From Haplodiscus bocki (Eukaryota), in contig OZ296649.1 of the NCBI GenBank assembly GCA_965655095.1, forward strand, positions 15,996,001-16,060,000: a stretch of DNA of 64,000 nt. Direction: 5' to 3'. A model generated the notes under the pieces. The model ran no database searches and was not told the origin of the DNA. It saw only the letters and a program-made list of their open reading frames with translations. Numbering within the stretch: position 1 is the stretch's first letter; every line of letters begins with the position of its first letter. The position numbers were made by a program, and so were the translations under genes. Positions 1,981-63,468 of the stretch are shown piece after piece.

Positions 1981-2379
1981 AACTCAGAATTTAAAAATTC
2001 ATGGTTGTCTTTTGTAGTTTGACAATTTTATTGATTTCCTCTCTTTGTGCCTCGTCAAACTGCCTTTTGTATTAGTGTTTGACCTTGATTGTATATATAT
2101 TGTAGTCTGTTAGTCTAGAAAACAAATGAAAGAATAATTGAATAGTAGAGGAGAACCGGCCACATATGGAGAAACAAAATTTTATTGAATTTAGTGTTAG
2201 TGGCCGTGTTTTGAAATAGTTCAGACTGGGTAGCAAATGAGTAAGTCACCAGGGAGTAGCCACAGTAGAAGTGTGTAAGAAAAATTTGGGCTCCCACGTG
2301 TGTGCCACGTAGCGCGTTCCTTGAATTTGTGGAGCGACTACGTGCGCGCTACGTGGAACACACTTGTTGAGCGAACAAG

Positions 2380-7382: not shown

Positions 7383-8903
7383 TTCTCTGTGGAGCGGTTA
7401 TTTCTACCACATTTCTCACAGGGTGGAATGACAGGTCTCGATTTTCTGTCTCTGTGATTATTTTTATTGTTTCCCTTGGTATTGTTTGTAACTTTGTTGT
7501 TGTTGGGGTTAGAGTTTGTTTGGGCGCTTCCATTGTTGTTATTGGCACTATTTGTGTTATTTCGTGTTTGGTCTTTCTCTCGTTTGAGCTGACGACACTG
7601 ATTTTGATAGTGACCTGGTTTTTTACAATGGTGGCACGTTGGTCTGTGTTTGTTAGAATTTTGCTGTGGAGCTTGTTGCGTCACAGTGTTTATGGGCATT
7701 TCATCTGGAGTTTCCGAACCATTTAATTCTAACTCCCTTTCAAGATGCGCCACAATCTGTTCTTACGTGCCGTTTTCCAAATGCGCCTGGTTAATTGATT
7801 TCTTCAGGTGCTGAGGCATTTTGGCATAGATGAATTGTTCGATGATCGCTTGAGCTGCAACTCGGAATGAGTCTTTCGCCAGTTTCTGGAGCTCATCTAG
7901 AAAATCAGTTACCTTCCGGTTAGCGGGGTTAAAGATCAGCCGTTGAAACTTGTGTTTTGCTGTAGCCATTGACTGGGGTTTCACGTACTTTCTACGGAAC
8001 ACAGTCATGACTTCTCCCAAATTCTCTCTATTAGGGATAGTGATGTTTTGGAACGTCTGTAGAGCATCATCACGCATGAGAGAGTGGAAGTAGTTAAAGA
8101 TGTCTTCCTGCGTTAGCTGATTATGGATTTTCAAACTCGTTTGGAACAGATCTTCAAACAGTTCGAATTTCTCTGATTTCCCATCAAACGTAGGCATTGT
8201 CGTTTTGAGGGATTTAGGCACCTTCGATATTCGGCTAATGTTGTTACTGAAATTGGCTGAATTGGAGTAGTCCACAACCAAACCATTAGCGTCCAAGAAT
8301 TATCCATTACTTATCCCAAAATTAGGCATTAGAAACACTTCTCTTGAAACAGACTTGCAGTGCTATTTTTAAGCATCAGCAATTTTAGGTGCAAGTGCGT
8401 TTGCATGTTTAAATGTGCACTTTAATTGAAAACAATCTCGTTCCTAACAATGTCAAATCATTTTAGCTGTAATTGTGAGGGTAGGTTTCGGTCACCATGT
8501 GCGAATTGGTTTCTGCCTCTGGGCTTTGGAGTTGACCAGAGTGGTGAGGAAAGTACCCCACTTCGGGGTAGGGATCGTTTGAGGAGCGATCCCCATGAGT
8601 TTCTCGGTTTTCTGAATTAGAGTCTCCGGACGTTCTGTGAGCGGCTACAGAACAAGTCCGAATTTGTGGGCTCAGAAGGAACTTTTGCAGTTTCGATAAA
8701 GCACCCAAGATACGTGACTCTATTTTGCTGAACTCCTTAGAGATTTTCTTAGTTACCCTCCTCTCAATCTGCTCGGAGACTTGGGAGATGTAATCTTGGG
8801 TTAACTCAGGGTCAAGTACAGTCTGTCCTCTACTGCTTTAACTGCCTTCAGGCGTTTCTCGTGAAACTGCCGCTAATTTCCTCTTGTTTCTCAATGTTGC
8901 CAT
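7244..8903 (-). pseudogene. gag: gag with CCHC zinc knuckle(s), interrupted
   Basis: Starts MATLRNKRKL at 8903. Capsid-like segment MPTFDGKSEKFELFEDLF (7763-8296). Knuckle CHHCKKPGHYQNQC and a degenerate CEKCGRNNRSTEKC (7244-7753). Its end overlaps the pol frame. Confidence 0.88.
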
Positions 8904-9997
8904 ACTTCTCGAAGGAAAATCTTGTCCGTGGTGAAGACTGAATTTATTTGTATTTTGTATTAATAAATGGTCTCCTCTAAATCTGAAGGAAAGAGTTCCA
9001 ACAGTTCAAACAGTCAAAAGGGTGATTTCCAAAGAATAACAATACTCAAAGTTGCAATACTTTATGAAAGGTACAATACCGAACGAATACATTTTATATA
9101 ATAATAATTGTACTTTCAGTTTTCCTATTTATACCTTTCCTTGGCGGTAAACATAATTGTTTACACGCCAGATCAAGGTACAAATAGGGAAAAGTACTTT
9201 TATCATATTATTTATCAAAGAAAAGGGATGCCGACTCTGGCCGGAAAAAAACACCCTTCCGTCCATTTCTTCCCTCACGGACCGCGTCTCTCCCATCTTT
9301 CGACAGGAGGGAAGTGCGGTCCGATGCGACGGAAATGGACATCAAAAGTGGTTATTCCCGCGACCACACAATAAACAAAAACATAAACAAAATATCAAAG
9401 TTATTTCCATACAGGGAATAAATACTATAATACAAGATAAAAATTAATCTGAAGTATGGAAAAATTAGGTTTATAATATAAAAAGATTCATGATTACATG
9501 CTGCATCAATTAAAACCACTGTTTGGAACAAACTAGGCCTATTTGCTAGCCCGTTCTACGTTTCTACCAGCTCAGGCTTCACTTTGGCCGGAGCGTTTAG
9601 TGGCAGCTACGTAGCCGCTTGTGGCACTGCCTTCCGCAGTGCTACTGAGGAGAATGATTCTGGTGGCTACGTAGACGTCCCGTGTCCGTCCAAATTGAAA
9701 CAGCGTAGTAGCACAGCGGATTGGCCGAAATTCTGGTGACGTCACCAGATTAGTTACGACGGAACCGATACGGAACAAATATTCACTTTTAAAGTCAAGC
9801 TCTGTTCTAATAGTTAAGCTATTGAAAATATGTTAGAACTGTCAATCTAAATAGATTACTGCACAATCAAAAAGGTGGATTTATATAATAATTAGTTAGA
9901 TTATTTATATAAAATAGCACCTAAAAGTAATATAAAATATACAGTTATTATTCGTTTGCTCCGCACTTATTCCGTCCCAATAAGGATCAGTTCACCA

Positions 9998-10273
9998 GAA
10001 TTACACGTATCGGATACGTGCTTTTACATGGAATAAATATTATGGGACGATACGTAACTAATACGTATCGTCCACATAAATTACATGTGTACGTACTAGG
10101 TGGATACGTATCTACTACGTATCCTTAAAAAAAATTAATGAGTAAATGATGCAATAAATGTTTGAGTAGGTAAGTTTGAGTGTTTCTACAGTTCTAATTC
10201 CTGCTTGATGGACCTGCGATGTCCTTTACTGCTGGGATCGTCTGACCGCAGGCTTTGCAGACGTGCTGCGACA
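9998..10273 (-). repeat. 5' LTR of element A (starts TGTCGC), followed by putative PBS TGGTGAACTGATCC (9984-9997)
   Basis: Homologous to 41019-41269. Homology ends exactly at TGTCGC in both copies, and a TGG-initiated conserved motif follows in both. Confidence 0.7.
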
Positions 10274-15100: not shown

Positions 15101-16990
15101 CAATTGGATCCATCAGGCCAAAACTACTCCATTAAAAAAATCGAAACACCGAATATTGTCATTATACCAACTAAAAAACACAAAAATTTTGACAGAGTAA
15201 CGATATTCAATTCAAAAAGTCCATGATTTCTCAACAACCAGTTTGCCTGAATAACGGGATTACGTCAAAATTCGCACCAAAACTGACACTGGAATTCATT
15301 TTATTTTTTTGAAGACCATGTCGAAAGCGGCAATCAAGAAAACTAATTTCCATACATGAGATCGAAGCGTTGCGAAATGAAATAGTTAGGGACGAAAAAT
15401 AAGTGTCCGGGAACCATTCGTTCTATGCAGCGAAGAACTAAGATTCCAAGGCTCGGTACTAAGAGACTGTATTCCATTACAAACCTTGTCAGAAAAGTGT
15501 GAGCTACCTGACGGCCAGAAAAACTTGGAAGAGACGAGCTGATAATGAATGATTTAGAGCTGTAATAACGAAAGAGTGGGGAAAACCGATGCGGTGGGCT
15601 AATATTCGAAAACATTTTCAAAACAACCGCTAATGATTTAGTCAAAAAATCAGACACCAGAAACAACGAGATAGTATGAGGGGACAATGTCCCGATGATT
15701 GATTTCAAATAGTTTGGTGTCTTGGAGAAAACCAAACACTACTTGAAGATGAAATAAATCAGCCACGAAAACAAACTGGGTCCAAGGGCTCATGAGAACA
15801 TAACAAAAGCCGAATCAAATTTTGAGATTGTTGTGAAAACCAGCAATATCAGAAACACTCGGTTGATGCGGAAGTGGGATATATGAAGTTCTGCATTAAG
15901 AAAGGAAAAAAAGGGAGAAAAAATGCCGGATTACTACAAAGGTTCAATTTGAACAAACCATCAAAAAGATGGGGACTGCTAATTAGTGGAGACAAGAGTT
16001 TAAACGTGGTGAATCGCGGGACTGTTGTTGTAAACTTCTCACGTTTCTGTCACCAGGGAATAACGAAACCGGTGACAGACAGTTAAAAATTCTGATGATC
16101 AAAGTGTGAGGAAGAGCCATGAAAAAAAGATCAAAACTTGCACGTCATGAATGAGTTCCAGTAAGAATTCAAAATATCAATTTTCAATCACCAAAAAAAA
16201 ACGAATGAAATGTTCGGCGGAACTGCGACATGAAATAATACTCAATTTTTCCGGGAAATTGGACAGTCAAGGGGTGGGAGACGAACCGATTATGTTATTA
16301 GCGGTAGACTGGTTCAGCGAATGGCCATCATTGGAATAAGATAAAAAGATGAAATCAAAGATGTTATCAAACGTTCGGAAGATTTTTAAAACCTACACCG
16401 CGTGCTAACAAAATATAAAAAAGGTTGAAGACAGTACTTTTTCATCAAAAGAACACAAAGTGGTCTGTAAAAGCAAAAACATCGAAGCCGAAAGTTGTAT
16501 ATGCGGATGACGTACTTAGACAGAACAGTCGAATGGGCTGTTCGGAGATCGAAAAACAGTTTTTTTTGCAATATTGATCAAGAAAACCGGACTCACCAGC
16601 AGTGTGGACTCAGCAAAACGAATCATGCTGTTTGGGAATCAGAAGCGAACATAAAAAGTACCGTTCAATGTTTATCACGGATGTAGGCAGCGAACGAAAA
16701 CAATCAAATTTTTTAGAGACCGTGAATTTTTCTTCTCTGATTGATCCGTCGAACTTTCAATTTTTCTTAAAAATACCTGGTTAACATTGGACATCATTCT
16801 GATCAAAAACTCGGTTGGTACGTTTTTCTTGTAAGATTCAGCATCATTGCATTTGAGAGCAAGACAACTTAGTGACATCTCCCAGGTTTCAATTGATTTC
16901 CGTTGCACTTTTGTTCAGAGATAATTTACTGGCGGGCATGAACCTAAATATTCAAAGTTTCGTGCAGAGGGGGGTTGTACTGTTCTACGG
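12170..16990 (+). mobile_element. Highly degenerate Ty3/Gypsy retrotransposon (element B)
   Basis: Zinc-knuckle remnant CHNCNK (~12990); integrase remnant LNFSGKL...LLAVDWFSEWP (16151-16339); purine tract AGAGGGGGG followed by TGTAC near 16967-16980 (PPT and LTR start). No long ORFs remain. Confidence 0.6.
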
Positions 16991-17002
16991 CTAGTCAATT
17001 GA

Positions 17003-17690
17003 CTACTTACTTTCTGCGTATTCGATAGCTGTTTTGAGATGTTGTTCAACTGTCCAAGCTTGTTCTCTTAGTTGAAAGAAGAACGATCCAAAGAATTTAG
17101 AGCACCCATTTAGTGTTCGGAACTTTTCGCCAAACAGATGGGAGAGTTCTGTAGTTGTGCAAATAGTGTCCTCAAAAAATTTTGAAAATTGAAAAGATTT
17201 AGATTTCAAGACAAAAGAAGAGAACTTGCAGAAGTTTGAAAACGAGTCTCGTTTGTAATTCTCTGTGAGAGTGAAGGAAAGTTGTGAACTTCTCATTTTC
17301 CGTCCAACCGCTCAATATTTCAAAATTCAAGGTTTTCTCAAATTTATCGCCAAAAACGGCAGGCATAGGGCCGAGGCGTACCAATTATTTTGATCGCAGT
17401 TTGAAGGAGCAGCAAAAACGGTGTTAGCATGACAAGTGTCAAAAATAGGACTTGGAGATTTTCACGGAGTACCGTTCGTTAAGCAATCAGGTCTAGCGCC
17501 GAAGGTAAGGTGCCGGCAACTAGAAAGGCATCGTTTAAATTTCGTTCTAGGCATGTAAACTTTGTCTTGAATTTTTCAAACTTGCAATTCGAGCTCTGTA
17601 ATCGCTGTCACACTACAATTCCTTGAAAATGTAAACTAATAATTTTTATTTCACGTTGTTTAAAGTTATCACGGTTCAAAATTTGCTCTT
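17003..17690 (-). repeat. Copy 1 of a ~690 bp diverged duplicated coding segment (copy 2 at 30278-30960)
   Basis: Shared blocks include TTTAGAGCACCCATTTAGTGTT, CCGTTCGTTAAG and CGCCGAAGGTA. Both copies end at a minus-strand GTAA splice donor. Confidence 0.8.
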
Positions 17691-17699
17691 ATTTTAACG

Positions 17700-18245
17700 G
17701 GGTAAGTCGTCACCCCACTGATAATGATTTGAAACCGATGTTGCCACCATCGGGATCTTTAAGGGACCATCCATCAGTTTCACTAAAAGGTGTCTTATGA
17801 GTGATGTAGTAATAGCAGTGTACTGTGGTTTTTGTGGTGGAGTCAGCCGCAGAATTAGGTCAATTACGCTCCTGCGTCTTTTGGTGATTCAGCACGTGCG
17901 TCCAACTGTTACAGGGTTCCAATTGATCTCTAATTTCGAGACATATCGTTTTGGGCCTGAGCCATCTTGTAAAAAATCAACAAAATTCCTAGCAGAAGTT
18001 GTCAAAGAAAATGTCGCCAAAGTGTCAATAGTTGAAGCTGAACCAAATAGATAGGGAATGAGGTAAAATTTGTATCCATACGGGCGGGACATAAAAATGG
18101 GGTTACAAATTCTTGTGGTGAGAACATTTTTCGTCCATGTCCAAAAACAAATACCTGGCAGAGTAAAGAACGAAATTCACGGATGACACTTACCAGAGAA
18201 AAACCCTGTATTGCAAAGTCCAAGCTGACAAATTTGATCGTTCAT
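17700..18245 (-). pseudogene. TRAF-type MATH domain ORF (frameshifted)
   Basis: ICNPIFMSRPYGYKFYLIPYLFGSASTIDTLATFSL..RNFVDFL and, after a frameshift, WLRPKTICLEIRDQ. These match the TRAF-C pattern S.PFY...GYK.....Y.NG...G.HLS.F.....G.YD.LL.WPF..K..L.L.DQ. Confidence 0.65.
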
Positions 18246-18270
18246 TGATGCATATTGAGATTATAAGGCT

Positions 18271-18274
<4 letters not shown>

Positions 18275-18303
<29 letters not shown>
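18275..18303 (+). repeat. (AG)14 microsatellite
   Basis: Read directly from the sequence. Confidence 0.98.
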
Positions 18304-18305
<2 letters not shown>

Positions 18306-19478
18306 TGCGTAAAAGTTTCGGAAACAAAACGTTTTACTGAACATTTCTTCCCATTTTCTAAAGCCTTTAGGGAAGTAATTATAGAGTAGCAGTTGATTGA
18401 GAAATTTTAATTTTCTGAGGATGAAGGAGAGTGAAATTGCTTTGAAACTATTATGATAGTAGTTGAAAGATGGTGCTTCCGGTTTTTTGGTTGTGATGTG
18501 AATACTAAGTAGTAGAAGGGTTGATTGTATCGAGCATGCCGGCCAAAGTGTTTGGTTTCTGTTCGGATAGGTAGTTTTTGTATGCTGAGACGAGTCATTT
18601 GAGGTCCCACGTGTGTTTTGAAGAGGATAAATTATGATAAATGGCAGGTGATTAGAGTCTTTTTTCGCATGATGTTTTTGCGAAAACAAAGAATAAAAGA
18701 TTTTTAACGTTAGTGTGCGATAAAAGACCGAATTGGGACAACGAGTGGCCGGGAAGGGAGAAGAGTGTTCTGGGTGGTGATCTCTTGTCTTTCAATGTCC
18801 AGAAAGAATTTTCCCACGAAGCAAACTCTGCTCTCAGTTCAGAGTGTAAATGAGAGTTAAATCTGGGGCTTACTACTGGTGATGCCAAAAAGCAAAGTGT
18901 TCTCCTTTATGATGCCGAGCAAGGGCTACCCGGTCCCCTCTGCCAAGGCTATCACTTTTTCCCTGTTCGACGAGGCAAAGTCGTCTTCGAGGTTGAATAC
19001 GTTTGTCACTAGGAGGCAAGGAATTTTGTTCACTTTCTCGAATTGTTGACGACAAACCAAGAGGTTCAGAACGACCAGTAGCCGTAGTAGCAACGGAGTT
19101 CGTGGCAACGCAAATCATGTTTGGAGTCGCAGGGACGATGTTCAGTTGGGCGTCTGCAGAAGCAAGTCCAGCTGGAAATGTTGTTGTGAGAAAGGGTGCT
19201 GGAAAAAAAGTAAGCACAAGATCAATGGGATGTTCCAACAATGCGAGCGCGCTTGCGAATGAAAGTCTGGTTCCACGTCACCGAAAATTAGTAGATAGTC
19301 GTCACTATCTCGCCCTAACTGAGATGATTGAAGATCTAAACGTCGGAAAAACAAAAGCGATGATGGTTCAGATTTTAAACAGGCGACATAATAAGTGTTG
19401 CAGAGTGTATGGCAGAATAGAGGTGCTTTTTTTCGTATCCTGTTACATATCTTGAGTGTCTTTTGTTACACATTAGCT

Positions 19479-21465
19479 TTATTCCGTCTGCTCAAAAACG
19501 ACCATGGCTGGGGCACGAAGGTTTTCTACGGACGTTAGATGGGATGTTAGAAAGATGTTAAAAGAGGCACTCAGGAGGGTCCGACGAAACTCTGAGTAGA
19601 GCTAGTGATGTTCTCTCTTCTCTTGGATTTCACTATCATGACTACCATGTCGATGGATAGTTAAAGGATCAAAAAGACTGAAAAGTAAAACCCGCATTGT
19701 CTTAGCACGTAGACAAAAGGTCCAAAGGTGTCTAAGACCTGATCGCTAAAATACCAAAAAGAGCTGATTTTGTCTACAAAAAAGTAGTTTCTTGTGATGT
19801 AATAGCCGAAGACGTCAGTTCTTTCTGGAGGAAGAGTTTATACGGTAAGATTCTGTGGAAAGTTCTTCAATGCTGTTCTCAAAGCAGCAGTAACTAGAAT
19901 TTTTTCCCAAAATCCTCGAGGTTCACTTCAAGGTTACATCCCAGCGTCTTGGACTGCGGTGAAAAGATAACAAAACTGGCTTTTATCTCGAAGTGCAAAC
20001 TCTACAAGTTATTTCTGGTGTACCATGCCAGGAGTCAACTTTAAACAAAATTCTTCTTGGTCCCTGTCGAGCTAGAAATTGATCATCGTCCCATCAGAGC
20101 AATTCTGAACATTGGGTAAGTCTGTCGTGTAATGACATCAACGACATGAATTTCACCTCTGTGTGGGATTGGATTTTTATCGTAGCAGTGGATCGTTGTT
20201 TGAAGCCGGGATTGAAACTTTGAGCTTTTTCTAGCGAAGCTAAGCTGCCATCTGTTTCTTAAAATTTTTTCTGATCTCCATTACACATTCAACATGCCCA
20301 GCGGGGTTTTTTCAGTTCAAGTTTCAAGTTTGTTAGGGTCTGAGTATTCACCTGCTGTCACTGATTGTGTAGTAACTGGATCTTTTTTCCTCGGATTAAA
20401 GGCGATTTTTGGATGAAAAAGTAATCATTGTTTGTTTGAGCTGCATCTTATAGTCCCTAATGAAGTCGCTTTTACTGCATGCTGCTTGTGACTTATGCGT
20501 CGCTACCATTTTGGGGATTATGGGTAAAAATGTGACCAAAATCGTTTTTCTCCATCGCCATCAAGACTTTTAGGTTTTTAGTCATGCCTTTTTTTTCTCA
20601 ACTCGTGTTCCATCCAGTGTCTAAGTCGAGAACTTCGCTCAAACAATTCATATAGAATGAGTCATAATGTGTTTAAAAAAGCGTGGGCTTTCTGCAGTGT
20701 TTTTGAAGATTGTTTTTGACTTTGAATTGGAATTCAAAATTGGAATCAGGTCTAACGATAACGTAAAATTTCATGTTATGTTTCACCGCGTTCACTTCTG
20801 CAATTCCGAGAAGTGAGAGCTCGCGAAATCCGGGTAGTCTCAAGTGTGAGCGAATGTGCCCCTGAATTAGTTTCGCATCCCAACTCCTATAAGTTTTATG
20901 GTAAAATTTGTCCTGCTTCGAATAAAATTCTCCCATTTTCCTTTGCAGGATCAAACGTTGTTTGCATTTGAGTTAGAAAAAGGTCGACTCCTTCGCAACA
21001 CAAACATTTCGGTTATAATCACTGTAAGACTAAACAGGTTTGTCTTGTGTGAGTCAAATTCCATTGAAGGGTCTGGCAAGATAACATTTTTCCTTGGAAA
21101 GTTTCTGACATTGTTCGAAAGAAATGACTATATCTGTTGTATTTTCAGTAAAAGAGTTGTCACTTCTACTGTGACCGTCCGATCCACAGTGCATTTTTTT
21201 GTTGTTGTATTCGAAGTTTCAATGCGTTCAATTTTTTTCCGGAAGCGCTTGTTACAAAGTGTGTGTTTCGTTTTGCTGATTTGAAATTCTTGTTGTCTGA
21301 TGTGGCTTGGTTGTGCCTGGTTTGCTGCGTAGAGAGTTATTTTGTGTCACGTCACTGCAATCGAATTTGTCCACTTTCAGAGCCGGAGCAATATGGTCTC
21401 CGTTTGGAACTAAATATTAAACTAAATGTACAAAACTACAAATTTTTGAGAAAGATTGACTTCAT
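19479..21465 (-). pseudogene. env: env: chuvirus-like class III fusion glycoprotein, decayed
   Basis: Signal-like start MKSIFLKNL*FCTFSLIFSS; KFDCSD (~21360); MHCGSDGHS...ISFEQCQKL (21100-21194); C-terminal TM region FGPFVYVLRQCGFYFSVFLIL*LSIDMVVMIVK (19630-19727). Total length is about 2 kb. Confidence 0.6.
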
Positions 21466-21479
21466 GGCTGATTTTCTCT

Positions 21480-22772
21480 GCGGAAAATTCATCTCTTTTT
21501 TTTCTGAAAGGTAGCTATCGAAAAGACGTTGTCAAAGCAGGCTGTAAAAAGAAACCGGCAGCTTTGTTGCCAAAAACACAAAGCTGGAGCTACGTTTTTT
21601 TTGTAGTAAGTCAAATACTGGAAAACAACGAGATTGTTATTGACTGGACTGAAAATGGTGTTCGAAAAGTGCCAAAGGAAAATTTCTCTAACCTCAATTT
21701 TTGATTTGAAGCTATGAAAATCAGCTTTAGTTCGTGTCATACTTTTTTATCCTGAGCCAAGGGTCATCGGTTGACATTGGAGAAAAGGCTCTCTTGAAAA
21801 GTGTTTCTGAACCGGACGGTCTCGAATGAAGATCAGGAAGTTTTACGATTTCAAACAAAGCCGAGGGAAGGTTAGTTAGGTTTTCCGGTTCCAGTATAGT
21901 GAGTTTTTGTTCCAAAACCCATATTGAAGTTGTCGCAGACACTGCATTCCAATAACAATTGGTCTGTCTTCCCGCCAGGCGAAATTCATTTTTTTCTCAA
22001 GTTGATTACTAGTTGCCGTGTACTTCCAAAGAAACTTCGTGTTCAGCTCAAGTGTAATAAATTTTCTGGATGCATGCAGAATGTTCATTGATCTCTGCTA
22101 CCGGGCGGAAAATCTTCAATTTTCTGTCATTGTGTTGTTTCCACGCTCCTATGTGAAGAGTTTTAGAGCGATTAAATTCTCAACAACAGTCTGCATTCGA
22201 TATTTTTGTATGCTCTTGTTCGTAACAATTTTCGATTGTTTTGCTTCCGAAGTTTCGATTTTGGCTTCCGGCTTGTGCCGGTATTGGGTTTTTGTATATT
22301 TTTTCCGCGGCTAATGTTCTGATTCTTTGAAGCACTAGATTTTCACCTATACTTCGTTAATAGTTTCCTGTGTTTTTTTCAAAGTTCTCGGTAGCTGGAT
22401 TATAGGTTACTCATCTCACACTTTAATTATTTCGTTGACTTGCAGGAAAACAATTGTCATCTGGTTGGTGGGAATTTTCCATTGAAAAAAACCTGAGAGT
22501 GAAAACTCGTGGTTTTTTGGCTGAATTGAAGGATACAAAAGAGCGCTAATTTTTCTTCTTTCAACTCTCTGCAGTTGTGAGCAAATGTTTTTAGTTGAGT
22601 ATCGGTTCAGGTTAGCATTAGTTGCTCTCCGGTTCGATCCCGTTAATGAATATCTGACTTACCTGATAATAGTGTTTCAAATAATTCCTTTTCTGAAAAA
22701 TATCGTTTGCTAACTGATGAGTAGATGAACAAAAATTGGGAAGAGGATGAAGAAAGAAAAGGTGTTCTTCAT
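21480..22772 (-). pseudogene. Second accessory, signal-peptide-bearing (env-like/secreted) ORF, decayed
   Basis: Begins MKNTFSFFILFPIFVHLLIS (hydrophobic leader) at 22772. Collinear ORF fragments at 21876-22088, 21727-21942 and 21489-21740. Confidence 0.4.
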
Positions 22773-24282
22773 TTCCTTTCAGCAGGATAATTTTCAACGG
22801 CTTTTTGCAACAAAGTTTATTGTCGTCGATCTTCTTTTGTTATGTTCGGCTTTCTTTTGTCGCAAGCAAGCCTCCTGGGGAAAATCGATGAAGGTGTCTA
22901 CATGGTCGGCCGTATTTGACGGTGGTAAAAGAAGTTACTAAACAACATTTTTTCAAAGATTTGAGGGTTCTAGAAAACTCTAGTAGGATGGTGGGTCTGG
23001 CTCCTTTGCAGTAACGTCTTCTCTTCGTCTGTTCTTTGTTGTTGCAGAATGACAAAGTCACCGCCCGTCGTTTTGTACGTGGAAGGATTAAAAAGTGAGA
23101 GTCCTTCCCCAGACCTTTCTCCCTTCCATGCCACCGCAAAAGAGTCATTCGTGGTTGACTTTTACAAATCTGGAGAGCCCTAATTTTTGGCAGGATGGTT
23201 GGATAACCTTTGTGAGTCTTCAACCGGGAGAAACCCTGCCTGTCGTCCCGCAGTGCACAGTGTTTGTAAGATTTCGTGTCTTCGTGAAAAGTCTGCATGG
23301 GATCACGGGGAAACTTTGGTTTTAGCTCCATCTGGTAGGGTTTGTTTGGTCGAGCGTCGACCGATATTTCCCGGGTACCTCCGACTCACAGAGGTGAAGA
23401 GGGAGGACACTGTTCAACTTAGTGGTGCGAGATCTTTGGAAGAATTCCAGGTGCGTCTGAAAGTTCTGGCGGAAGCAGGAGGCTTCTGTGGCTTGGGTTG
23501 GGCAACTCCTGCCGGCAGGGTTATGCCTCCGAAGGTTTAATTCAATACCAATCTACTAACACTGTGCATGGGAAGCATCAAGATAGATTGGGATTGCACT
23601 CACAAAGACACAAAAAACTTCCGTTGAGAACCATCTAACCATCTGTTGAGTCATCCTAATCTTTTAAGAAGTAATGTCCTAGCTGACCTGAGCTACGTAT
23701 AGACTGAAATAAATAAAGAGATAATTTTTTTATATAAATAGTAGGAACTCTTCCATAAAAAGCTCAAGGTGATCAAGTGAACAATAACACAAAACTTTGC
23801 CACTTTTGGAAACTCCAAATTAATTTGAAGGTTGAATTTATCAGGAGAACAGACTTAGAATCGTGTGGAGACATAGGTGTCACATATACGGTTAGAATCC
23901 CGGTCGGATAGTTGCAACAGATTTTAGTAACGAGGATTGTCTGCAGATCAATACCGGACAGAGAAGTGGCCGCTATCCACAGACCATCAGGGTAGATGTA
24001 GTGATTTTCAGGTTTTTGCTCTAGCTTAGAAAACATCAAAGTAAAAGTGAACCCGGGGTTTTTCAATATCTTGAACAACAAAGCATTTCGAGAAGCCTTT
24101 TTAGTGTAAGGAAGGATTAAAAACACTGTTTAACTGTGAGCAAGTACTTTTCGGATTTGATAGCCTTGGCAGGTGCAATTATGGATTAACGAGTAGGATT
24201 TGAGTTCGTTTGATTGAGTTCTTCAATGTTTTGGCTCCGTGGTTACAGTTTCGTTTGTTACGTATAAATTGTTCGATCGTAG

Positions 24283-27200
24283 TCAACGGCTTGGTAAATG
24301 GTTAAGTTGATAGTTGTTGACTGAAGATAAGTTTTGGGTAATATAGAGAAGCGAAATTATCGGGATTATCAGGTAAAAACGGCGAAAATAATTAAATTGA
24401 ACCATAAGGAAAATCACTGCTGGCGGGGCTGACAGGTTTCTGTGTAGTAACTGTCGGAGCCATAGCAAGTGGGCCAGCCAGGAAAGCAATGTAGTCACCG
24501 TTGATTGGTTCCCTAGAGCTGTTAATCTTTCCAATGCGTTGTTCTGAAAACTTTTCAAAAAAATTGTCATGTCTTTGGTCCCTTGGCACCTACTCATCGA
24601 TCAACGCAGTTAAAGAATCTTCTTTTGTATAATACTCAACCAAGTGATTGCGATGTACTGTTTGCAAAACGGATGGGACTTTATCGTCTTAGATTTGATA
24701 AGTATGGCTAGTTATCCACTTGCTAACCGCGAATGAGCCCAATCGGCGTTGCTGGAGTTTTTGCATTTTAGAAGAGTCTTGTCTTTGAGCTTCGTAAAAT
24801 AGTTTCTGACCTACTTCCAAGTGATGTCCCACTTGAAGCTTCTTTCTGCAAGCGTAGGCACGGGTTGTTTGTTCAGGCCATAGTTCAGGAAGTGAAGAAC
24901 AGTTGCGTCTGAAATCAAGTTCTTCATCAAGAAGAGCTTGAGACAGCTGGGGTCGGAGGAAGTTGTTAAGCAGTTCAAACTTTATAGATGTGAGTAGTTT
25001 TAATGAAGAGGTAAGCGTGTACTGTTTTCGAAACAGCACGTTTTCGTTTCTAGAAAAGGCTTCTTTAACAGGCATTGGTGTTTATGGTTCGCTTCCAGAA
25101 ACAATCTCTTTGGGTGTTTCGCTCCTAATGTAATTAACACTAGTACTGAGGGCGAAATCAAGTTTGGGCGCAAGAAGAGCTCAGTTGGTAACAGCGTCGT
25201 TCGAGAAAGTTCTCCATTAACGAACAATATGCTGGTTTTTTGTTTCCACTTTGCCATTCGTTCAAGACGAGTGTACAGATCATGAGCGGGCAGTTTTGCC
25301 CATTTTTTTCAGCCAGTAATTGAAGTCAGTGTTGAAAGGTACGGTTCTTTTGTTGTGTATAATAGACTGGAGAGTTTTGAAAAGAGGAATCCATTTTGCA
25401 ACCGCAGCATTAGTAGCTTGCGCACCAGTGTTAGTAACAAGGTAAACCATCAGAAACCGACAGAAAGGGAAATATTAGGAAAGATTGTGTATTTCGAAAA
25501 ATAGGTGGGTGGAGGTATTCTGTATGGTCAATTTGTATCGTACAAACCGAGGTGGCGTTCCCCTGTCGTTCTTCCAGAAGTACCTGGCGTAGGTGTTTCG
25601 GTTCTGGTTGTTTGGTTTGAAAACCAGGGTAGTCGGTGGTCACAGCGGAGATCTAGTCGAACATGCTTGGCCAGTATTAGAATGGTTTAGCGTTAGCATA
25701 GGTTATAGAGGCTCCGATGTATCCACTCATCTCCGTGTGATGTCCCAATCAGAAAGAGGAAAAAACGTGAGATAAAGGCTCACTGATTCCCACATTGCCT
25801 TTGTGTAGATTACCAAAAAGCTCGTTATTACAAAAGAGTTGTCTTGGTTGTTCGATGACTGAACTGTTGACAATTTTGTGGTAACCTCTAGGTTGTCGAT
25901 TTTCCGCTGTTTTTGGGTCAGCGGATTTACCTTCTTGAATCCGGGAGCCTGCATATATGAGCACTGGGTCCGTGAGTTGCTCTTGTGAAATGGACGAAAT
26001 ATCAGAGGCTATGACTCTTGCAACTTCAACTAACTTGATGATCAAACCCTGAGTTCCAGATGAGGGGCATCGCTAGCTGACAGTTATTTTTTGTCTAAAG
26101 AGGCGTCAGGTGTGCCTTATACCGAGACATGAGCAGTTCAGGCTTTGTATAGTCAGTAATGAGAATTGGCTTTGTTTATGCAAATATAGCCTACCTCGTG
26201 CCTGTTTCTATCTTCATCTTTTTTCAAAAACTCCTCATCGTGTGAAGGAAGAACAGTTTCTTCAGCCTTTGTTGTACCAGATAAACTACTGGAAGTGTAG
26301 GTTCCCTAAGGGTTTTCAGATGGTGGTGAAGAGACAAGCGACTGAGATCTTCAAAACCGACGAAACTGGTTTATGGACTAATCCATTCGGATACAGTCTG
26401 CGGTTGACTGAACTTAGAGCGTTAGAAAATCGGTGTTGACCCTTTTAAGAGAAACGTGCTGTTCATCGTTGTGCATGCGAAGTTTCGTTTAGTCCTTGCT
26501 TTGATGGCTATGAATTGAGTAAATGTCGTTACCGGAGTCGGTTGAGTTATACTCGTGTTTCATCTTTTACGTGACAGGTTGGCCAAGTTGATCAAAAACT
26601 GGATCTTTCCCCAAACTTCTTTGCTTTCGTTGGCGATGCGGGTTTTTGTCACTTGTTACCTTTTGACTGAGTTTATCTGGAAAAACAATGTTAGATCTGG
26701 GGTCCGTATAGTTTTCGAAATTTGGAATTTCGGTATTATAACTTGTCTTTCGACAAAATGGTAAGGCATCTTTCTTCTCGTCCCCGTAGGTGGAAGATGG
26801 GTTTATGATTGTGATACGAAAAAAACTGGGAAAAGGGAATGAAATATGTAGTGCTAGTAAGTTTGTAAAGCTGAGACAGTTTCGCGCAGCTCACCGTGGA
26901 ATGTTCACACATTCTGTTCATCTTTTTCGAATTTTGAGAAGTGAAAGTTATTCTCCATTTCCTGTCTGGAAACTGATACTTAGGCAACATCCGGTTCCAA
27001 CGTTGGAGAAGTCCACATGAATTTGGACATGATACTCAGTAGACGGAATTGCGAGAACAGTGTCTTCGCGAAATATAACTTTAATCAATTGGAATCTTCC
27101 TTCGTGTTCGCTTGTCCAGCAAAACAAAGCCGAATCTCCAATGAGTTTGTGGAAAATCTCGCTTTCTACATCAAAATGGTGTCACAACTGTAAAATCCAA

Positions 27201-28300
27201 GGAATCCCAACACCTTCATAACATCGCGTTTCGACTCAGGTGATTTGATTTTTTCTGGATCCTTGACCTGCGTAGCGACTACTTGTTGCCCATCGGAGGA
27301 AAAATTATTTCAAATAAATTTTTACTTTTTTGAAAAAAGAAAATGGTTTCTAGAACGCAATTCTCAGGTTGTTTTTCAGAAGCAACTTTTGATACTCTTG
27401 AATGATCGAAAAAAAGTTGCCTTTAACCTGACAATTAGCTCGTTTGCTTTCCTGATTCAAAATTTAAATCTTTCTTTGTTGGTTACGTCCAAAGAAAAGA
27501 ATTTCATCTGTCGTTGAGGCAGCTCTTTTTTGATGATTTCTCCTATTCACGATCAAAATCGGAATATCGCCCGAGTCAGTTTGAATTGAATAAACAGAAG
27601 GTTCACGAAAGTGAGACCGGTTGATACCGCTTCTCCTTCGTGTTGGAAAGTGGATCCAGAAAGAAAGTGAGATATCGGATTTTCAAGAGAGTATTTCCAG
27701 CATGTGGCCGTTTCCGCCTCAACGTGACTTTTGGAGAGTAATCGTACATTTAAAGTCCGAGAGACGTAAGGAAATGTTCTTGTTTCGAAGAAGGTTACCA
27801 TAACAGACAGTTTTAGGGAAATGACGCTTTTGGATTACTTGGTCAGTCAAAAATTAAGGGCGAAACTTGGCCTTGACACAAGTCCATCCCATTGTAGTTT
27901 TGCACTTTCATTTCGATGATCCAGGCAGGTAACGGAAGGGAACCTTCTCCGTTAGGATCATGGCTGAAATTTTTACCAGCATAATCAATCATGGGCAATT
28001 TTTGTCCCAAATATATTTTGGTGGGTTAGTTTGCTACTTTTATGCAACATTCTAGGATGTTGAATTTGAGAGATCTCTCTAAAAATGCGGCAGTTAATAA
28101 ATCAGCAGAAGTCTTCAGTGTCTTGCAAAAATTCAATTTTATCTCCACTATCTTTCTTGGCGTCGCTGGTGGCAAAACAGAAATTATTGAAGCTAACTTT
28201 TGAATTGATAGATGGTCCGAGCTGCATTTTGGAGACCTCAGTAGTTTAATGGACGGAAATCCGGCAATTACTTGGTAGAATGTTCTCAAGAAAAGAGGAT
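24283..28300 (-). pseudogene. pol: pol remnant of element C
   Basis: RNase H and integrase/GPF-like motifs as above, with many stops and frameshifts. The RT core is not clearly recognisable. Confidence 0.75.
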
Positions 28301-29166
28301 GAAAGCATTAGAGTTGGGTTGGTTGTTAGTTTGCGGAAATCTTTGCTCATAAAACACAAAATTGTTAGATTTTTGACCATTAGGTCTCCGGAAAACTTAA
28401 AAATCAGGCGTGTTTGATTGTGATGACTGATGTGGCTGATTTTGTGATGGGTTTTGTCTTATAAAATTGTCTGTGAATGTGATGCGTGTTCATTCATTGT
28501 TCATTTTCGTACCCGTTTTTTCCCCTGGAAATTTGTTGTGTACATTGTGGCCAGAGTGATTGTTTTACGTAGTGCGGTTTTGTCGTTTTGTTATGGTTGG
28601 GGTCGGTTCATCGTAAGTCTTCTAGTTCGCTTACTCTGTGTTCCTGTGGCTCTGAACGAAGATCTTCCATTTTTTGTCCCAAAGATTTCAATTCCGTGGG
28701 AACCGTTTGCCCCATCAGCAGTTAAAATTTCATAAAAAGTGAAAATAATTTTGCCAATTTGATAAGCAGCGCGTCTGGGTTAGCACTCATCAATCGTTAG
28801 GAATCACAATCTCGGTTTTAGAAATTCGAATGAGACTTGGGAGGGTTAGAGGTTAAGGTGGAGTCAGTAGAAAAGCCACAACAGTAGCAAAAGAAAGCTA
28901 TGCTTAAATCACGCTTCATCCAAAATTGGTCAAGATAGATTTGCACTGAGTCACTTGAAGAGACTTTGTCTTGATTTTCGAAATTCAGCTCCAGAAACTC
29001 CAAGTATGAAGATCTAATTGTTTTTTATTACCTAAAAATTAGGAAAACGACCAAAACTGATATCAACGAGCCTGAAGAAATAAGCACATTGGAATCCAGT
29101 GTTCTGTAGCTTTCGCTCATACTTTAACATCATCATATAATTTCAGCGTCACTGGTCGGACCACTT

Positions 29167-29459
29167 TGTGGCACGGAATATGAGGATGGAACTTATTCAG
29201 TTCATTTCGACTTTCTATTCAAATTTTTCTTTACGGTCTCAATGGCGCAACTCGTCAATCAGAGAGGTGCAACCGCTGTTGCTAAGTGGAGAAGTTTAAG
29301 TCTTAAAGTTGCCTTGCCGGCCCGCGTGAACAAAGTAATGCGTGAATTCACAAGCTAGGACTTGGATGATTGTTAGGTAGCGGTGAGTGTTTGAGCAAGA
29401 ATAAATTTGAATGAATGGTAGCTAGTTCAATTTTCAATGCACTAAGTTCTACGTTCACA
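29167..29459 (-). repeat. Putative 5' LTR of element C
   Basis: Bounded by inverted TGTG...CACA ends. On the minus strand it is followed 3 nt later by TGGTCCGACCAGTG (PBS-like), upstream of the gag/pol remnants. No partner LTR was seen. Confidence 0.5.
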
Positions 29460-30277
29460 AAACTCCAAGACAACGATTTCAAACATGAAGCTAACATTGC
29501 TCGATTAGACGGGGAATTCACTTTTTTACTGTCTAAGTAGAAGTAAGCAACCTTAACATTTATCAGGTCAAAAAATCCAAAGTGAGTTTCATTAGCAACC
29601 TCAAACTTTGCTTTTTAGGATAAAATACAGTAGCACATTTTTCTATCACTAGGAAAACATTTTTCGCAGATGAATGTAGCTCCAGAGTTTTTAGTCTTCT
29701 TGAACCTCACAAACAACAATAGAAAGTTTTTCGGCATCAATTAGTTGCGGTCTTTTTATTTCCTTTTAGTTAGGGCGAACAGTATAATCATCCATTTTGT
29801 AGCTTTTTTGTTGTATAAGTAGTTATTTACTTTGTTTTTTTAGTCCTAAGACCAGGTAGTCCGAATGACGAATCAACCTAACGAAGTTTTTCATGTCCCG
29901 GTTTTAACTTGTCAACCCAGAAGAAAATCTAGGATTCTTTTTCTACTTGGTTCTGTTCACGATCAGAAGATGGGTTAGCAACCAAGACGGGATAACTCGC
30001 GTTATGGCGTAGCAACCGAGCGATGTCTCTCAAAATTCAGGAAGTTTCCATCGGTTCACCCTCGGACCTCATTCTGATCAGGAGTTGGGTTAGGAGGTTT
30101 TTTTGGAATACTCAACATCATTGCACTCGAAAGCAGGGCCACTGATTGACTGCTCTTAGGCTTCAGGTGATTACCGTTACGTTCTTATTCAGAGACAAAT
30201 TACCAACGGGAGTGATCCAAAATATTCCAAGTTTCGGCTAGAGTGTGGTACTCTTCTAGGCCTAATCATCTAAATAT

Positions 30278-30960
30278 TTACTTTTCGCTGTTTTAATAGC
30301 TGATGCTAGATTTTGTTCAACTCTCTATGTTTGTTTTTTTTTGTTGTAAGCAAAACGATTGAGACGTTTTAGAGCACCCATTTAGTGTTTGGATTTTTCC
30401 GCCAGTTAGGTTGAAGTCTTTTGCAGTTGTACAATTTGTCTCCTCAAAATCTTTAGAAATGGTTGCAGATTAAAGTTTCAATATAAAAGAAGAGGATTTG
30501 CAGAAATTTAAAAACGATTCCCGTTGGTGGTTAACAGTGAAGGAACGTTTTCAGATTCACAATTTTCGTCCGGCCACTCAACTTTTCAAAGTTCAAGATT
30601 TCTCGAAAGTTGTTGCCAAATATGGTAAGCATGGGTGCAAGACGTACTAAAGATGGTGGTCACAGACTGAAGGAGCCCAAAAAACGGTACTCGCATGACA
30701 AGTGCAGAAAATAGGAGAGTTTGACGGAGTTCCGTTCGTTAAGAAATCATGTCTAACGCCGAAGGTATGGTGGTAGCAAATAGAAGAGCTTCGTATACCT
30801 TTCCTTCTAAGCATGTCAACGAATTTTCGATGTTTTCAATTGTGCACTTCCAATTTTCTTATCACTCTCACACTTCAATTCCTTCAATATGTTAGTTACT
30901 CTTTATAATTTAATTACGTCATTGTTTAAATTTAGCACGGTTTAAAATTGGTTATCGTCA
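30278..30960 (-). repeat. Copy 2 of the duplicated spliced coding segment (see 17003-17690)
   Basis: Collinear similarity with 17003-17690. Confidence 0.8.
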
Positions 30961-31867
30961 TTCCTAACTCGACACGAGAATGCAACAAATTGATTATTTG
31001 AAAAAAAAAACAGATGTAGTATAAGCTCTTTCAGGAACACTCCATTCTCTATGGAGGTAATTTCAGTACTATGGGTTAGGTTCTGTCGGATCTGAATAGG
31101 TTTGTCTTTTGAAAGAGTGCCAATTGAGCCTATGGTATGCAATTTCTCAACTGGTTAAAGTTTCGAGATTTGTGATGAACATGCTTGTAGATTCAAACTT
31201 TTTTAGACGAACCCTTTTCTTGCAACTGTATTTTTCTGGCAGATTGTTAAAAAACGGGTGGCTTAATTAACGAAGGGCTACTTTATTGCGTCTGTTTCAA
31301 AAGTTGTAATGGGTTAATGTTTGCAGTTTGTTCGTACTTCTGAAGCTGTCGGGTCATTGATCACCTAATACAAAATCCTTGAGCTTCAATTTTTCATTCA
31401 GTCTTTCGAACTGTTAACTGGATCGGACTGAATCCTGAAAATTTGGAAAATTTTCGAAAAAAGCCCAGAACTAGAAAAAACTAAGAGCTAAAAATGAGCT
31501 GAAATAATTCTTGATACGTAAATTTACTATATTCACGTATTTTCAGTGCCGCGTATCTTTTATCACATAGTGGCATGTTTAACGCCATCGACCCTTTACA
31601 GGGTATTTGACTGAATTATTTATCCACGATATGGCTATAGTTTATAAGCTATATCAATGTATTGAATATACACTCGGCTTTTCTGTTAACTCTAACCCCC
31701 ACACCATAGAAGATATGCGAAATACTAAGCGGCGCAGTGCTTTAACTCACGCGCGAGCGTACTTTAGCCAATCACAGACGAGTTTTCTTCTCAAGGGGGG
31801 GCACCAAAAATCTTGTTACTACTAGTGTGCGTGTAGAGGGGGTGGGAGTTTGTAGAAAGGATTCACA

Positions 31868-34445
31868 TACCGTAATTTATGGCGTAAAAGACCCCTTTTC
31901 ATAATGTCGCATTACCGGTAACGCTAAACATTAAATTAGTAACTAACCTTTTAGGTGGGGACGGGCACAGCACAAAGGGCACAAAGGATATAGAAACAGC
32001 TGGTGATGGAATTTGATAATTGGGATTACACAATTCCAATTCTATGAAAAAATCTAATTTTTCCACGACTCGCCATTTCTCTACCTGCTCCAGCTGTTAC
32101 CAACATGCTTGGTGGGTATCGTTCACTCATTAGTACCATGAATGGCAGCATGGTGTTTTTGTTGAAAATCATTTACGCCACGACAACAACACAACTTGTT
32201 TTTTCCCGCCTAATGGACGGGAGCCTCTCTTCATTTTGAATTCATCAACTTTCGCTACCACCATCTCTTTTCTGTTCTTCAAAATTATTCTTGAACAAGA
32301 ATCTCATCTCAACCTCGCAAAAAAAAATCTAAGACAAGTTCGAAAACTGTCTTAGCAAAATTTTTCTCGATTCCTACAAAAAATTCCAAGTCAAGTTCAA
32401 AAGTTGTCTTGGCGATAAACCAATCTGGATTCATTCGAGTTCCTCCTTAGACAAGTCTCACTGGAAAACCTTTTTGGAGCCAATTTCAAAAACTGGAACA
32501 GGTAGAAGAGCATCCAACTTCCCGGCATGACGATTGAGCAATGGCATACGTTAGTAACGAGTTCAGTTAACCAATTAATCAGACCGAGCTATCTCTCTGG
32601 TTATTTTATTTCATCCCTTTCCAACTGAAACACTAATCCAGAATTCCAATAGACTTTTGTCTCGGTTGAAGAAAAGAAAAAAAAGGACTTCACCTCATTG
32701 GCTGCTTTACCGTGGTACAGGCGTCTTAGCTTTAGCGTGGTACAGGCGCTTTACTTCCGCTTGAAGGCTGAAGATTTGAACAAATGTGTCGGCTCCTTAC
32801 CTTAACCTAACCTTTTAACCTAACCAACTTAAGCCTAAGAACTTTATCTAATTAACTTTAACCTAATTTAATTTCATATAATTGTTTTCCTTAACCTCAT
32901 TTCCTACAAAAATAAAACACATGTAACATCCCTGTTCGCATTGCCCAGCTTGATTGGTGTTCGGACTTCAACCGCTGACGGTTAAGGGGACCATAACAGA
33001 ACTGTCTCGGTTGACTGCGTAATGCATGTTACCGAATTTTATATTAAAAGATAACATTGGATAATGGTGTTGAGTCTAACTTTTGAAACTGTAAAACACA
33101 TGAAGTTTTCCCACTCGCACAGAGGCTTGACCTTGTTATCTTAATCGCCGGTCGAACAAAAGGGAACCTAAGAACTTTTTCGGTGTCTGACCATAATGCT
33201 AGCTACTGAGTGTAGAAAAAACGATTATAGTATTATATAGTACAGAGTAATTACGGTAAAAGCTGAATTTAACACAATCGAAATTAAGAGAATAAAAGCG
33301 CCAGAAAAAGTGAACATTAAACGGTTCTCCCTGGCCCAAACCACTGAAATTAGCTTCCCTGACCAATTTGTTTTGAACCCATTTTTTAAAAAAATGGATT
33401 AGAAAGGACACATTTGGTGTCCTTGAATTATTTCCTGAAGGATATCTTTTAAAAGTTTGATTTTAGTTCGCGGATTGTTTTACCAAGATCCGGTATTTAA
33501 TTTTCCTTTCAATTTAAATGAGAATCGAATCACACGACGAGCTGAATGATCTTAATTCACTGCCCAAGAATTAATAGCTGAATTTTTAATTCCTATTGTT
33601 TTTCAGAATTTTCAAAATTGGTTTAGGGTTGAAGCGGAAATTTTTTCTTCGACTAAAATCAAAATCATAAAAGACTCCAAATATTTCGTTCCAAAATGGA
33701 TTCAATCTACCATTCAAGCCCCTCATCTTGCGCAGTTGTTGTTTTTTCGAGTCGTTCAGCTGCTACCATTTTTTCCATAAACTGTGATTTCAACCATTGA
33801 TTTTGTACCTACCATTAATCGCTCACAAGTACTTGCCATACGAATTTACGCACTTTTGTTCGCAGGGTCGGTAGGAAACATGAGTTAGAAATACACAAGA
33901 GTATGCTCATTGAGACTTTTTCGCTTTTGTTTAAAACCAACTGTTACAACCAGCGCTATTGTGACTAAACTAACAAAAAGGAAATTTGGTAAATTACCAG
34001 CTCGGATGAAATAAAGATAATTTTTTTCGTTTTTTTCCCCATATTCAACCCGCGAAACTGACCAAAATGTAGCCCCCATCTTGAGGGAGTCTTATATGCC
34101 GAGGAAACCAATCATAACTCAAACAAATGATCTAAATTGTACAAAAATGTGACATACAGACAAACGAACACGATTTTGCTGGGTTTGATGGACAAGATTT
34201 TTCAATTTTAATTTTTTGTTGTTTCGATGAAAACATTTTATTACCTAGATAGTCTTTTATAACCTTGTGATGTTTTTATGATACTTTTACACAAGCATTT
34301 TGTTTTCGAATAATCAACCCTCAATCTTTTTTTTCGTTTTCAAGTACGAATACCGACATTTTTAATAAGGGGTTTTATACTAAATCCTATTTTTTTTGCT
34401 TTATGATTTGAAGAGGGTCTTATACGTTGAGGGGTCTTTCACGCC
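31868..34445. mobile_element. Possible Tc1/pogo-type non-autonomous element remnant
   Basis: Left end TACCGTAATTTATGGCGTAAAAGACCCC; partial inverted match GGGGTCTTTCACGCC at 34431-34445. The outer part of the right TIR is missing. Confidence 0.3.
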
Positions 34446-39467: not shown

Positions 39468-39667
39468 NNNNNNNNNNNNNNNNNNNNNNNNNNNNNNNNN
39501 NNNNNNNNNNNNNNNNNNNNNNNNNNNNNNNNNNNNNNNNNNNNNNNNNNNNNNNNNNNNNNNNNNNNNNNNNNNNNNNNNNNNNNNNNNNNNNNNNNNN
39601 NNNNNNNNNNNNNNNNNNNNNNNNNNNNNNNNNNNNNNNNNNNNNNNNNNNNNNNNNNNNNNNNNNN
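39468..39667. other. Assembly gap (200 N)
   Basis: Run of exactly 200 N. Confidence 1.
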
Positions 39668-57637: not shown

Positions 57638-57666
57638 TCCTAATTTGCTTTCTTTCATAGATTAGA

Positions 57667-58161: not shown

Positions 58162-58185
58162 TCATTACAAAAATAGGCGAGCTCG

Positions 58186-60132: not shown

Positions 60133-60330
60133 CCAGAATATCTTCTCGCAAACACTTTTGCTAAAAAAAGTGGCATCAGAAATTAAAAGTGGCTAAAACG
60201 AAAACGATGAAAGCCCATTCACATCATATCCTCGACCCAATAATGAACACGCCAAATGGCTGCGTCTACACTGAAGTGAACCACAACTGTCAAAACCATC
60301 CCAAGAAGAGGGAGGTAGTTCTAGTTCATC

Positions 60331-61549: not shown

Positions 61550-61567
61550 TTGGCTATAAAGTGAAAT

Positions 61568-63424: not shown

Positions 63425-63468
63425 TAAAGAACTTGATTAGCAAGAATCACATAACGAAGGAAGGAGTG

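Follow-up and report, generated by a model that had tools for sequence, protein, structure and literature searches.

The window analysed here is a stretch of 64,000 nucleotides (nt) from Haplodiscus bocki (assembly GCA_965655095.1, contig OZ296649.1, positions 15,996,001 to 16,060,000 of the forward strand). Its minus strand carries, at 16780-30974, a decayed copy of a Ty3/Gypsy element, a retroelement with long terminal repeats (LTRs). This copy spans approximately 14.2 kb, and fuller copies found in the genome (1.5 Gb in 6,626 contigs were searched) measure approximately 18.3 kb. An original prediction, made from the letters alone, had proposed a complex, retrovirus-like Gypsy lineage of more than 12 kb, and the genome supports it: 16 modules lie between paired LTRs. 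They include gag, pol, a putative envelope gene (env) and a series of small open reading frames (ORFs), named u1 to u4 and A to F. The following features are retained in the window copy (aa, amino acids; tblastn and DNA matches are to relatives).

29167-30974, minus strand: 5' LTR, approximately 1.8 kb, starting with TGTC and ending in CA, colinear with the 1.86-1.96-kb LTRs of younger copies
29146-29163, minus strand: primer-binding site (PBS), 3 nt past the LTR end, the same as the PBS in five younger copies
28938-29120, minus strand: remnant of leader ORF u1, 61 aa, hydrophobic (tblastn 44%, E-value 2e-10)
28823-28891, minus strand: remnant of leader ORF u2, a 43-aa protein with a single transmembrane (TM) segment and a paralogue of u3 (tblastn E-value 0.005)
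28244-28694, minus strand: gag remnants, most of the gene being deleted; Retrotrans_gag was found in a relative
24150-28250, minus strand: pol remnants with protease (PR), the C-terminal half of reverse transcriptase (RT), RNase H and integrase (Pfam and PDB matches on relatives)
23733-24012, minus strand: remnant of ORF A, 124 aa in relatives (tblastn E-value 5e-8)
23061-23500, plus strand: antisense ORF B, 154-235 aa in relatives, with one in-frame stop (tblastn E-value 5e-16)
22254-22460, minus strand: remnant of ORF C1, 73 aa (DNA match 60-64%); its tandem paralogue C2 comes after it in relatives
21717-22058, minus strand: remnant of ORF D, 112 aa (tblastn E-value 6e-12)
19428-21452, minus strand: env remnant, predicted class III (Monjiviricetes/gB-type) fusion glycoprotein, 36-61% identical to a relative's env
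18713-19277, minus strand: remnant of ORF E, with a low-confidence N-terminal half, a basic helix and a small beta-barrel
17755-18629, minus strand: remnant of ORF F, a coiled coil plus TRAF-C (MATH) domain without RING
17710-17719, minus strand: polypurine tract-like motif, identical to the one 5' of the 3' LTR in five younger copies
approximately 16780-17705, minus strand: first approximately 900 nt of the 3' LTR, the remainder lost, 72% identical to the 5' LTR (Kimura two-parameter distance, K2P, 0.31)

Self-comparison of the window reveals the LTR pair as a direct repeat (16789-17683 against 30064-30949, 72% identity over approximately 900 nt, E-value 1e-131). A 3' LTR had been reported as missing; one exists, running from 17705 to approximately 16780 and truncated. 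The LTR placed at 29167-29459 is genuine LTR sequence, but it is merely the 3' end of the approximately 1.8-kb LTR at 30974-29167. A query with this LTR end found 39 other genomic matches among 40 scored. Because the K2P within LTR pairs is 0.003-0.048 in eleven younger pairs versus 0.31 here, the window copy is far older than those copies. Its decay is heavy: the longest stop-free frame within window positions 15-32 kb is 181 aa, env carries 25 stops and three frame changes, and the protein-level match of C1 is weak. Deleted altogether are u3, u4, most of gag, and the macrodomain and N-terminal half of RT, the last two through a pol deletion at approximately 27420. The target-site duplication (TSD) is unreadable, and a search for the tRNA corresponding to the PBS gave one pattern match with two mismatches, without a tRNA gene at that place.

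At the level of single genes, the Gypsy-type gag and pol remnants that had been predicted are borne out, the glycoprotein of approximately 2 kb is env, and the MATH-like ORF is F. An antisense ORF pair at 23095-23540 was rightly recognised as antisense coding, but it is the single gene B split by a stop. Of the ORFs assigned to 18873-19455, the minus-strand part (18873-19277) is the N-terminal part of E, whereas the plus-strand ORF 18997-19455 is an antisense shadow of E, with a ratio of non-synonymous to synonymous change (omega) of 1.18 in that frame. A signal-peptide ORF proposed from 22772 runs for 20 codons to a stop, sits in a spacer without coding signal and has no homologue among 80 fetched loci (best E-value 0.26). 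A spliced gene, given without coordinates, also found no support, as the TRAF gene is a single ORF in relatives. ORFs A, C1 and D, the leader ORFs and the LTR direct repeat had been overlooked. A candidate coding gene in U3 (ORF 17003-17311) was rejected as well, as it has no codon periodicity (0.36/0.34/0.35 versus 0.35/0.28/0.50 in env).

Heavy decay, LTRs just 72% alike and an unreadable TSD are what would be expected if the window were a chance pile-up of independent insertions, and such a pile-up can be compared directly with the order of modules across the genome. The LTR end, the direct repeat, pol and the 3' region each served as a query and had 40-45 scored matches apiece, several of which were co-located at window-like spacing. 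Seventeen loci were fetched, eight chosen on co-located matches (seven, and one in a second batch) and nine on a single-module match, and three third-subfamily loci found through TRAF completed a 20-locus order table. All 16 query modules occur in one order at 14 of the 20 loci and a colinear subset at the other six; among the loci with the complete order are six of the nine chosen on a single-module match. A tandem locus (L052-L055) was omitted from the table, and the order there is identical. In the reference copy (L023/L024) the genes run u1, u2, u3, u4, gag, pol, A, B (antisense), C1, C2, D, env, E, F, so that pol is followed by accessory modules and not directly by a polypurine tract and LTR. 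Fuller copies have LTRs of 1.86-1.96 kb with TG..CA ends in a 7-bp inverted repeat, and in five copies a PBS follows the 5' LTR and a purine-rich tract precedes the 3' LTR. A 4-bp TSD is perfect in four of five copies checked, with a single mismatch in the fifth.

Linkage was also approached from the 3' end. A genome search for TRAF domains gave 2,967 first-look candidates, of which 150 were scored and every seventh sampled (20 loci, one substituted). Twelve have env and E upstream and five are internally deleted derivatives, so that 17 of 20 have other element genes directly upstream. Another two are element-type TRAF genes with no other module within 4.5 kb upstream, as independent insertions would have it, and one is a non-element gene. 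ORF B has at least 150 copies, and one of those 150 lies at the expected place in 27 of 37 pol loci. The window is colinear from end to end with LTR-bounded copies, and the order table refutes a pile-up, for which we see next to no chance. Apparent TRAF genes inside LTRs (matches 18 kb apart) were likewise dismissed, as the two pairs examined came down to a tandem element and an extra upstream TRAF remnant.

The lineage comprises three subfamilies. Although env is only 55-78% identical among them, all three keep u4, B, C, D, env, E and F; in the third, u4 is triplicated, and u1-u3 and A were not detected. An integrase tree left their branching unresolved, and the env tree was a quick version. 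Subfamily 2 LTRs exceed 3 kb, and the LTR regions of subfamilies 2 and 3 contain tandem arrays of approximately 60 bp (L050 6656-7489; L052/L054, L058), which a short repeat at window 32277-32413 resembles. Head-to-tail tandem copies at L052-L055 and L064/L065 are 99.2-99.98% identical and may reflect either recent tandem duplication or an assembly artefact.

Selection on the ORFs was gauged by counting synonymous and non-synonymous variants common to at least two of 9-15 copies, in all six frames. Since this is a rough count on related copies, the p-values are only indicative. Purifying selection in the annotated frame (omega 0.13-0.31) is evident for ten of the 11 accessory ORFs, in E at the C-terminus only. 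Values are 0.21, 0.14 and 0.20 for u2, u3 and u4; 0.26, 0.16, 0.31, 0.23 and 0.13 for A, B, C1, C2 and D; and 0.13, 0.14 and 0.22 for env, the E C-terminus and F, with gag (0.08) and RT (0.03) as positive controls. The annotated frame has the lowest omega for u2, u3, u4, A-D, env, the E C-terminus and F. LTR windows and two spacers (0.49-1.8) and a decoy leader ORF (0.98) have no preferred frame. Singleton variants in the selected accessory ORFs and env are more relaxed (0.36-0.63); the low omega of shared variants, set against this relaxation, indicates selection in the replicating element, with decay once a copy had been inserted. Purifying selection thus acted on the ORFs of this unit while the element replicated.

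This pattern also bears on whether the extra ORFs are captured cargo kept for the benefit of the host, as in a domesticated or mutualistic element. Such an origin would suit the host-type TRAF and TARG1 domains and the presence of non-element MATH genes in the genome. However, selection is seen in variants common to dispersed copies, whereas singletons are relaxed, and the MATH domains of the element form a branch separate from five found outside it (support 97 in a fast tree with midpoint root). Host benefit is accordingly a very improbable explanation.

In relatives, gag encodes 480 aa, pol approximately 1,800 aa, and env is a separate ORF downstream. A 1,835-aa pol ORF has PR (weak, E-value 0.05), RT, RNase H and integrase in Gypsy order by Pfam, and a metagenomic relative (L074) has the same order. 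Pol order, TG..CA LTRs, PBS, polypurine tract and short TSD are all features of Ty3/Gypsy elements (Metaviridae). RT matches the solved structure of Ty3 (E-value 2e-34) ahead of foamy (3e-23) and MLV-type (4e-13) enzymes, and Ty3 appears to be closer kin than either Retroviridae or Caulimoviridae. A macrodomain, placed between PR and RT, matches human TARG1/OARD1 (E-value 6e-23) and retains in 15 of 18 copies a Lys and a GCGLD motif, which we take to be catalytic residues. Env follows pol after a gap of approximately 2.6 kb with five ORFs inside. In a relative it has 715 aa, a signal peptide, one TM segment by hydropathy and 16 Cys. It matches the Monjiviricetes fusion protein PF24664 (E-value 1e-41), and its Atlas neighbours are gB and rhabdovirus G (score 0.96). 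Together these features suggest a TM-anchored class III fusogen that has a signal peptide.

The accessory ORFs are largely without known kin. The first three, u1-u3, are hydrophobic peptides of 41-61 aa; u2/u3 and C1/C2 are paralogue pairs; and u4, A, B, C and D had no match in anything searched. Weak hidden Markov model matches (E-value 0.025-0.3; u4-D profile probability 31%) hint that u4, A and D may be paralogues. No Atlas match of use was obtained for ORF D, and AlphaFold gave no usable model of B (pLDDT 43). The C-terminal part of E is confidently modelled as a helix and a small beta-barrel; fold searches gave weak small-barrel matches (Tudor/chromo/KOW-like, best Z 4.1) and no viral match at an E-value of 0.001 or below. 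ORF F combines a coiled coil with TRAF-C (PF21355, E-value 2e-17; human TRAF1, E-value 1e-13). No RING match was found in its 308 aa, and with two Cys in all it lacks the RING and zinc fingers of TRAF2-6, a TRAF1-like layout.

Expression of so many small ORFs would need sub-genomic RNAs or re-initiation. The ATG start codons of A and B are kept in 14/14 and 12/12 copies, respectively. A pyrimidine-rich tract and AG lie just 5' of the B ATG in 14/14 copies and in the second subfamily, which suggests that B is expressed from a spliced antisense RNA.

Relatives of env extend beyond this genome, with 1,589 at an E-value of 0.001 or below among 50%-cluster representatives and ten metagenome loci recovered; none was found in viral_contigs. 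L074, a 13.2-kb element, is identical to the present lineage at 37% in gag, 70% in RT and 40% in env, and two paralogues of ORF E, which have coiled-coil tails, come after its env. In another metagenome locus (L073) env is again followed by ORF E, and this linkage makes env plus E a feature of the wider clade. A 17-kb contig (L080) has pol, env and, around env, ORFs of 295, 1,032 and at least 617 aa without known match. The protein database holds approximately 30 relatives of the TRAF ORF of about 308 aa; no longer TRAF relatives occurred among 223 candidates, which is weak evidence. Judging by these matches, the occurrences of the macrodomain, TRAF and small ORFs known so far are confined to the lineage in this genome and to close relatives in the database.

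A non-autonomous derivative has multiplied alongside the full element, as an approximately 7.8-kb unit (L064/L065) with u4 copies, gag and D, without pol; derivatives were also seen at L081, L093, L095, L097 and L099. At L095, L099 and L064 MATH continues in frame from the first approximately 110 codons of env, and the L095 frame is open for 283 aa with a signal peptide; L093 and L097 retain just a short env piece. Intronless coiled-coil plus MATH ORFs of approximately 395 aa, from another clade, lie at L060 4496-5689 and L061 5192-6367. The former adjoins a hAT-like ORF and is possibly another mobile TRAF-C carrier.

In summary, one unit bounded by LTRs and a TSD carries gag, pol (PR-Macro-RT-RNase H-integrase), a class III env by homology and about ten accessory ORFs in a fixed order. 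The window probably holds an old, internally deleted insertion of this multi-subfamily Ty3/Gypsy (Metaviridae-type) lineage, built like a complex retrovirus. From its anatomy, the element would be copied by ordinary LTR retrotransposition. In Drosophila errantiviruses, Env mediates the passage of particles between cells, and the Env described here may do the same. The accessory proteins would serve the element against its host: the macrodomain could strip ADP-ribose marks, the RING-less TRAF could intervene in TNF-receptor/Toll-type signalling or apoptosis as adaptor or decoy, and the single-TM peptides could act at membranes. ORF E, with its modelled basic helix and SH3/Tudor-like barrel, may bind nucleic acid, and B would probably come from the spliced antisense RNA. 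Of the entry and host-modulating genes originally proposed, the entry gene is thus upheld by homology, and host modulation is suggested by homology in TRAF and the macrodomain.

Taken to its full extent, this reading describes a recently mobile complex metavirus, infectious from cell to cell, that evolved the lentivirus/deltaretrovirus strategy independently. Its equipment would comprise a class III entry protein, a TRAF decoy and a de-ADP-ribosylase directed against innate immunity, viroporin-like peptides, expanding u4/A/D paralogues and a spliced antisense regulator, and defective satellites coding for an env::MATH fusion with signal peptide would accompany it. We put this forward tentatively, as one possibility.

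Several observations weigh against the main reading, of an element built like a complex retrovirus whose accessory proteins act on the host. Because a derivative devoid of pol and of most of env has spread too, the element can do without env in cis, and as L074 has neither macrodomain nor TRAF, these are not essential to the wider clade. Selection is weak for u1 (omega 0.43) and weak or absent for the N-terminal half of E (0.81), and the counting method biases omega below 1 in neutral DNA (LTR windows 0.5-1.4). An upstream AG is poorly kept for u4 (3/15), C2 (6/15), D (7/15) and F (6/14), which leaves a general splicing model unsupported. Nine of the 11 accessory ORFs have no database homologue, and in the TRAF1 alignment ORF F differs at motifs that we take to form the receptor-binding groove, making receptor binding doubtful. 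The last two points, together with the weakly Tudor/chromo/KOW-like barrel of E and the lack of env relatives in viral_contigs, would fit a purely intracellular retrotransposon of the same structure. There the accessory proteins would work for the element's own propagation, in particle assembly, RNA export, integration targeting or piRNA evasion, without immune antagonism, and Env would act in cell-cell spread or be vestigial. On the other hand, Env retains its signal peptide, TM segment and 15-16 Cys under constraint equal to that of any accessory gene, TRAF-C is a signalling domain and the TARG1 type an ADP-ribose domain, and PMC3352826 describes a TRAF of a fish iridovirus with an effect on host apoptosis. 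We hold the intracellular alternative to be rather unlikely.

The main reading has wider consequences. Complex vertebrate retroviruses are set apart in PMC2238898 by their accessory genes, as a hallmark. If about ten selected accessory ORFs do serve an invertebrate Gypsy element in this way, the strategy arose independently in Metaviridae. The TRAF-like and TARG1-type domains hint at anti-retroelement defences beyond piRNAs, namely TNF-receptor/Toll signalling and ADP-ribosylation, and the nine ORFs without known homologue are candidate new effector families. Surveys that limit the pol-env gap or element length would tend to miss such elements. Furthermore, TRAF-domain matches in this genome are mostly transposon copies (19 of the 20 sampled, from 2,967 first-look candidates), which would inflate immune gene counts.

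Other features lie in the same window, and the repeats around the element may resemble those of acoel worms. A second, different LTR-type element occupies 1-10273 (minus strand) and 39668-41269 (RVT_1; DUF1759/Retrotrans_gag), and a further copy of its 5' 1.6 kb, with 71% identity, adjoins a 200-N assembly gap at 39468-39667. On the plus strand, 56800-64000 holds an A32-type packaging ATPase (58177-59307) and an rve integrase (60339-61457), presumably a Polinton/Maverick-like remnant. An exon of the host Arp2/3 p34 subunit gene lies at 50468-50914 on the minus strand (PF04045, E-value 1e-34).

To our knowledge, the gene complexity of this element is usually met only in viruses such as HIV. The searches revealed no sequence homology between its accessory ORFs and retroviral accessory genes, of which HTLV-1 HBZ and HIV Vpu are examples. 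Some retroelements in Repbase are said to contain macro domains. The literature searched, which covered neither Repbase nor subscription journals and included the available text of PMC6338049 and PMC8532177, contains no report of a macrodomain in Gypsy pol. The literature search, Repbase being outside it, likewise found no Gypsy element with about ten separate selected accessory ORFs, an antisense gene and a TARG1-type domain. The individual parts have precedents, and the element is not categorically new.

The following comparisons refer to the available text of each paper. The 'ancient errantiviruses' with HSV/gB-type env (Chary & Hayashi, PMC13524379) are likewise multicopy Ty3/gypsy gag-pol-env elements with a class III fusogen, LTR and PBS, and gB-type env is described there as widespread among Gypsy elements. 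The search behind that survey tolerated no more than 1,000 nt between pol and env and covered regions of 10 kb or less, some of them extended by hand, whereas the gap here is approximately 2.6 kb with five ORFs. The words TRAF, Macro and accessory do not occur in its main text, and the 'macro' matches listed from its supplements are species names. Burro/GYPSM1 of planarians (PMC6431247) resembles the present element in its giant gypsy-like build, env homology and MATH_TRAF_C domain, and in Dugesia tigrina MATH_TRAF_C is a separate accessory ORF. Burro exceeds 30 kb and encodes a polyprotein of approximately 5,000 aa in which env sits in frame between gag and pol and which also has BIR, BCL2 and ankyrin domains; the element described here, in contrast, has short separate ORFs, env after pol, TRAF last and a macrodomain in pol. 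LTR elements of bdelloid rotifers (PMC5408684) also have extra ORFs beside gag and pol, including small TM proteins. There, however, a single ORF3 varies (env, GDSL esterase or DEDDy exonuclease), in place of the fixed set of about ten found here. The original statement that Gypsy elements usually carry at most a single env ignores these published extra ORFs of rotifer and planarian elements. Tor of Oikopleura (PMC4402516) is likewise an env-bearing LTR element of an invertebrate, with three ORFs only; its env is made by splicing or from an internal promoter, which offers a model for expression here. A virus-borne TRAF-like protein that acts on host death signalling is also known from ISKNV (ORF111L, PMC3352826), a large fish DNA virus. 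Complex vertebrate retroviruses come close in layout, with accessory genes around env (GyDB, PMC2238898). An antisense gene and small TM proteins are further points of likeness. Unlike these viruses, the H. bocki element has an RT that appears nearer to Ty3 than to the foamy or MLV enzymes and an env predicted to be class III rather than the class I surface-transmembrane type.

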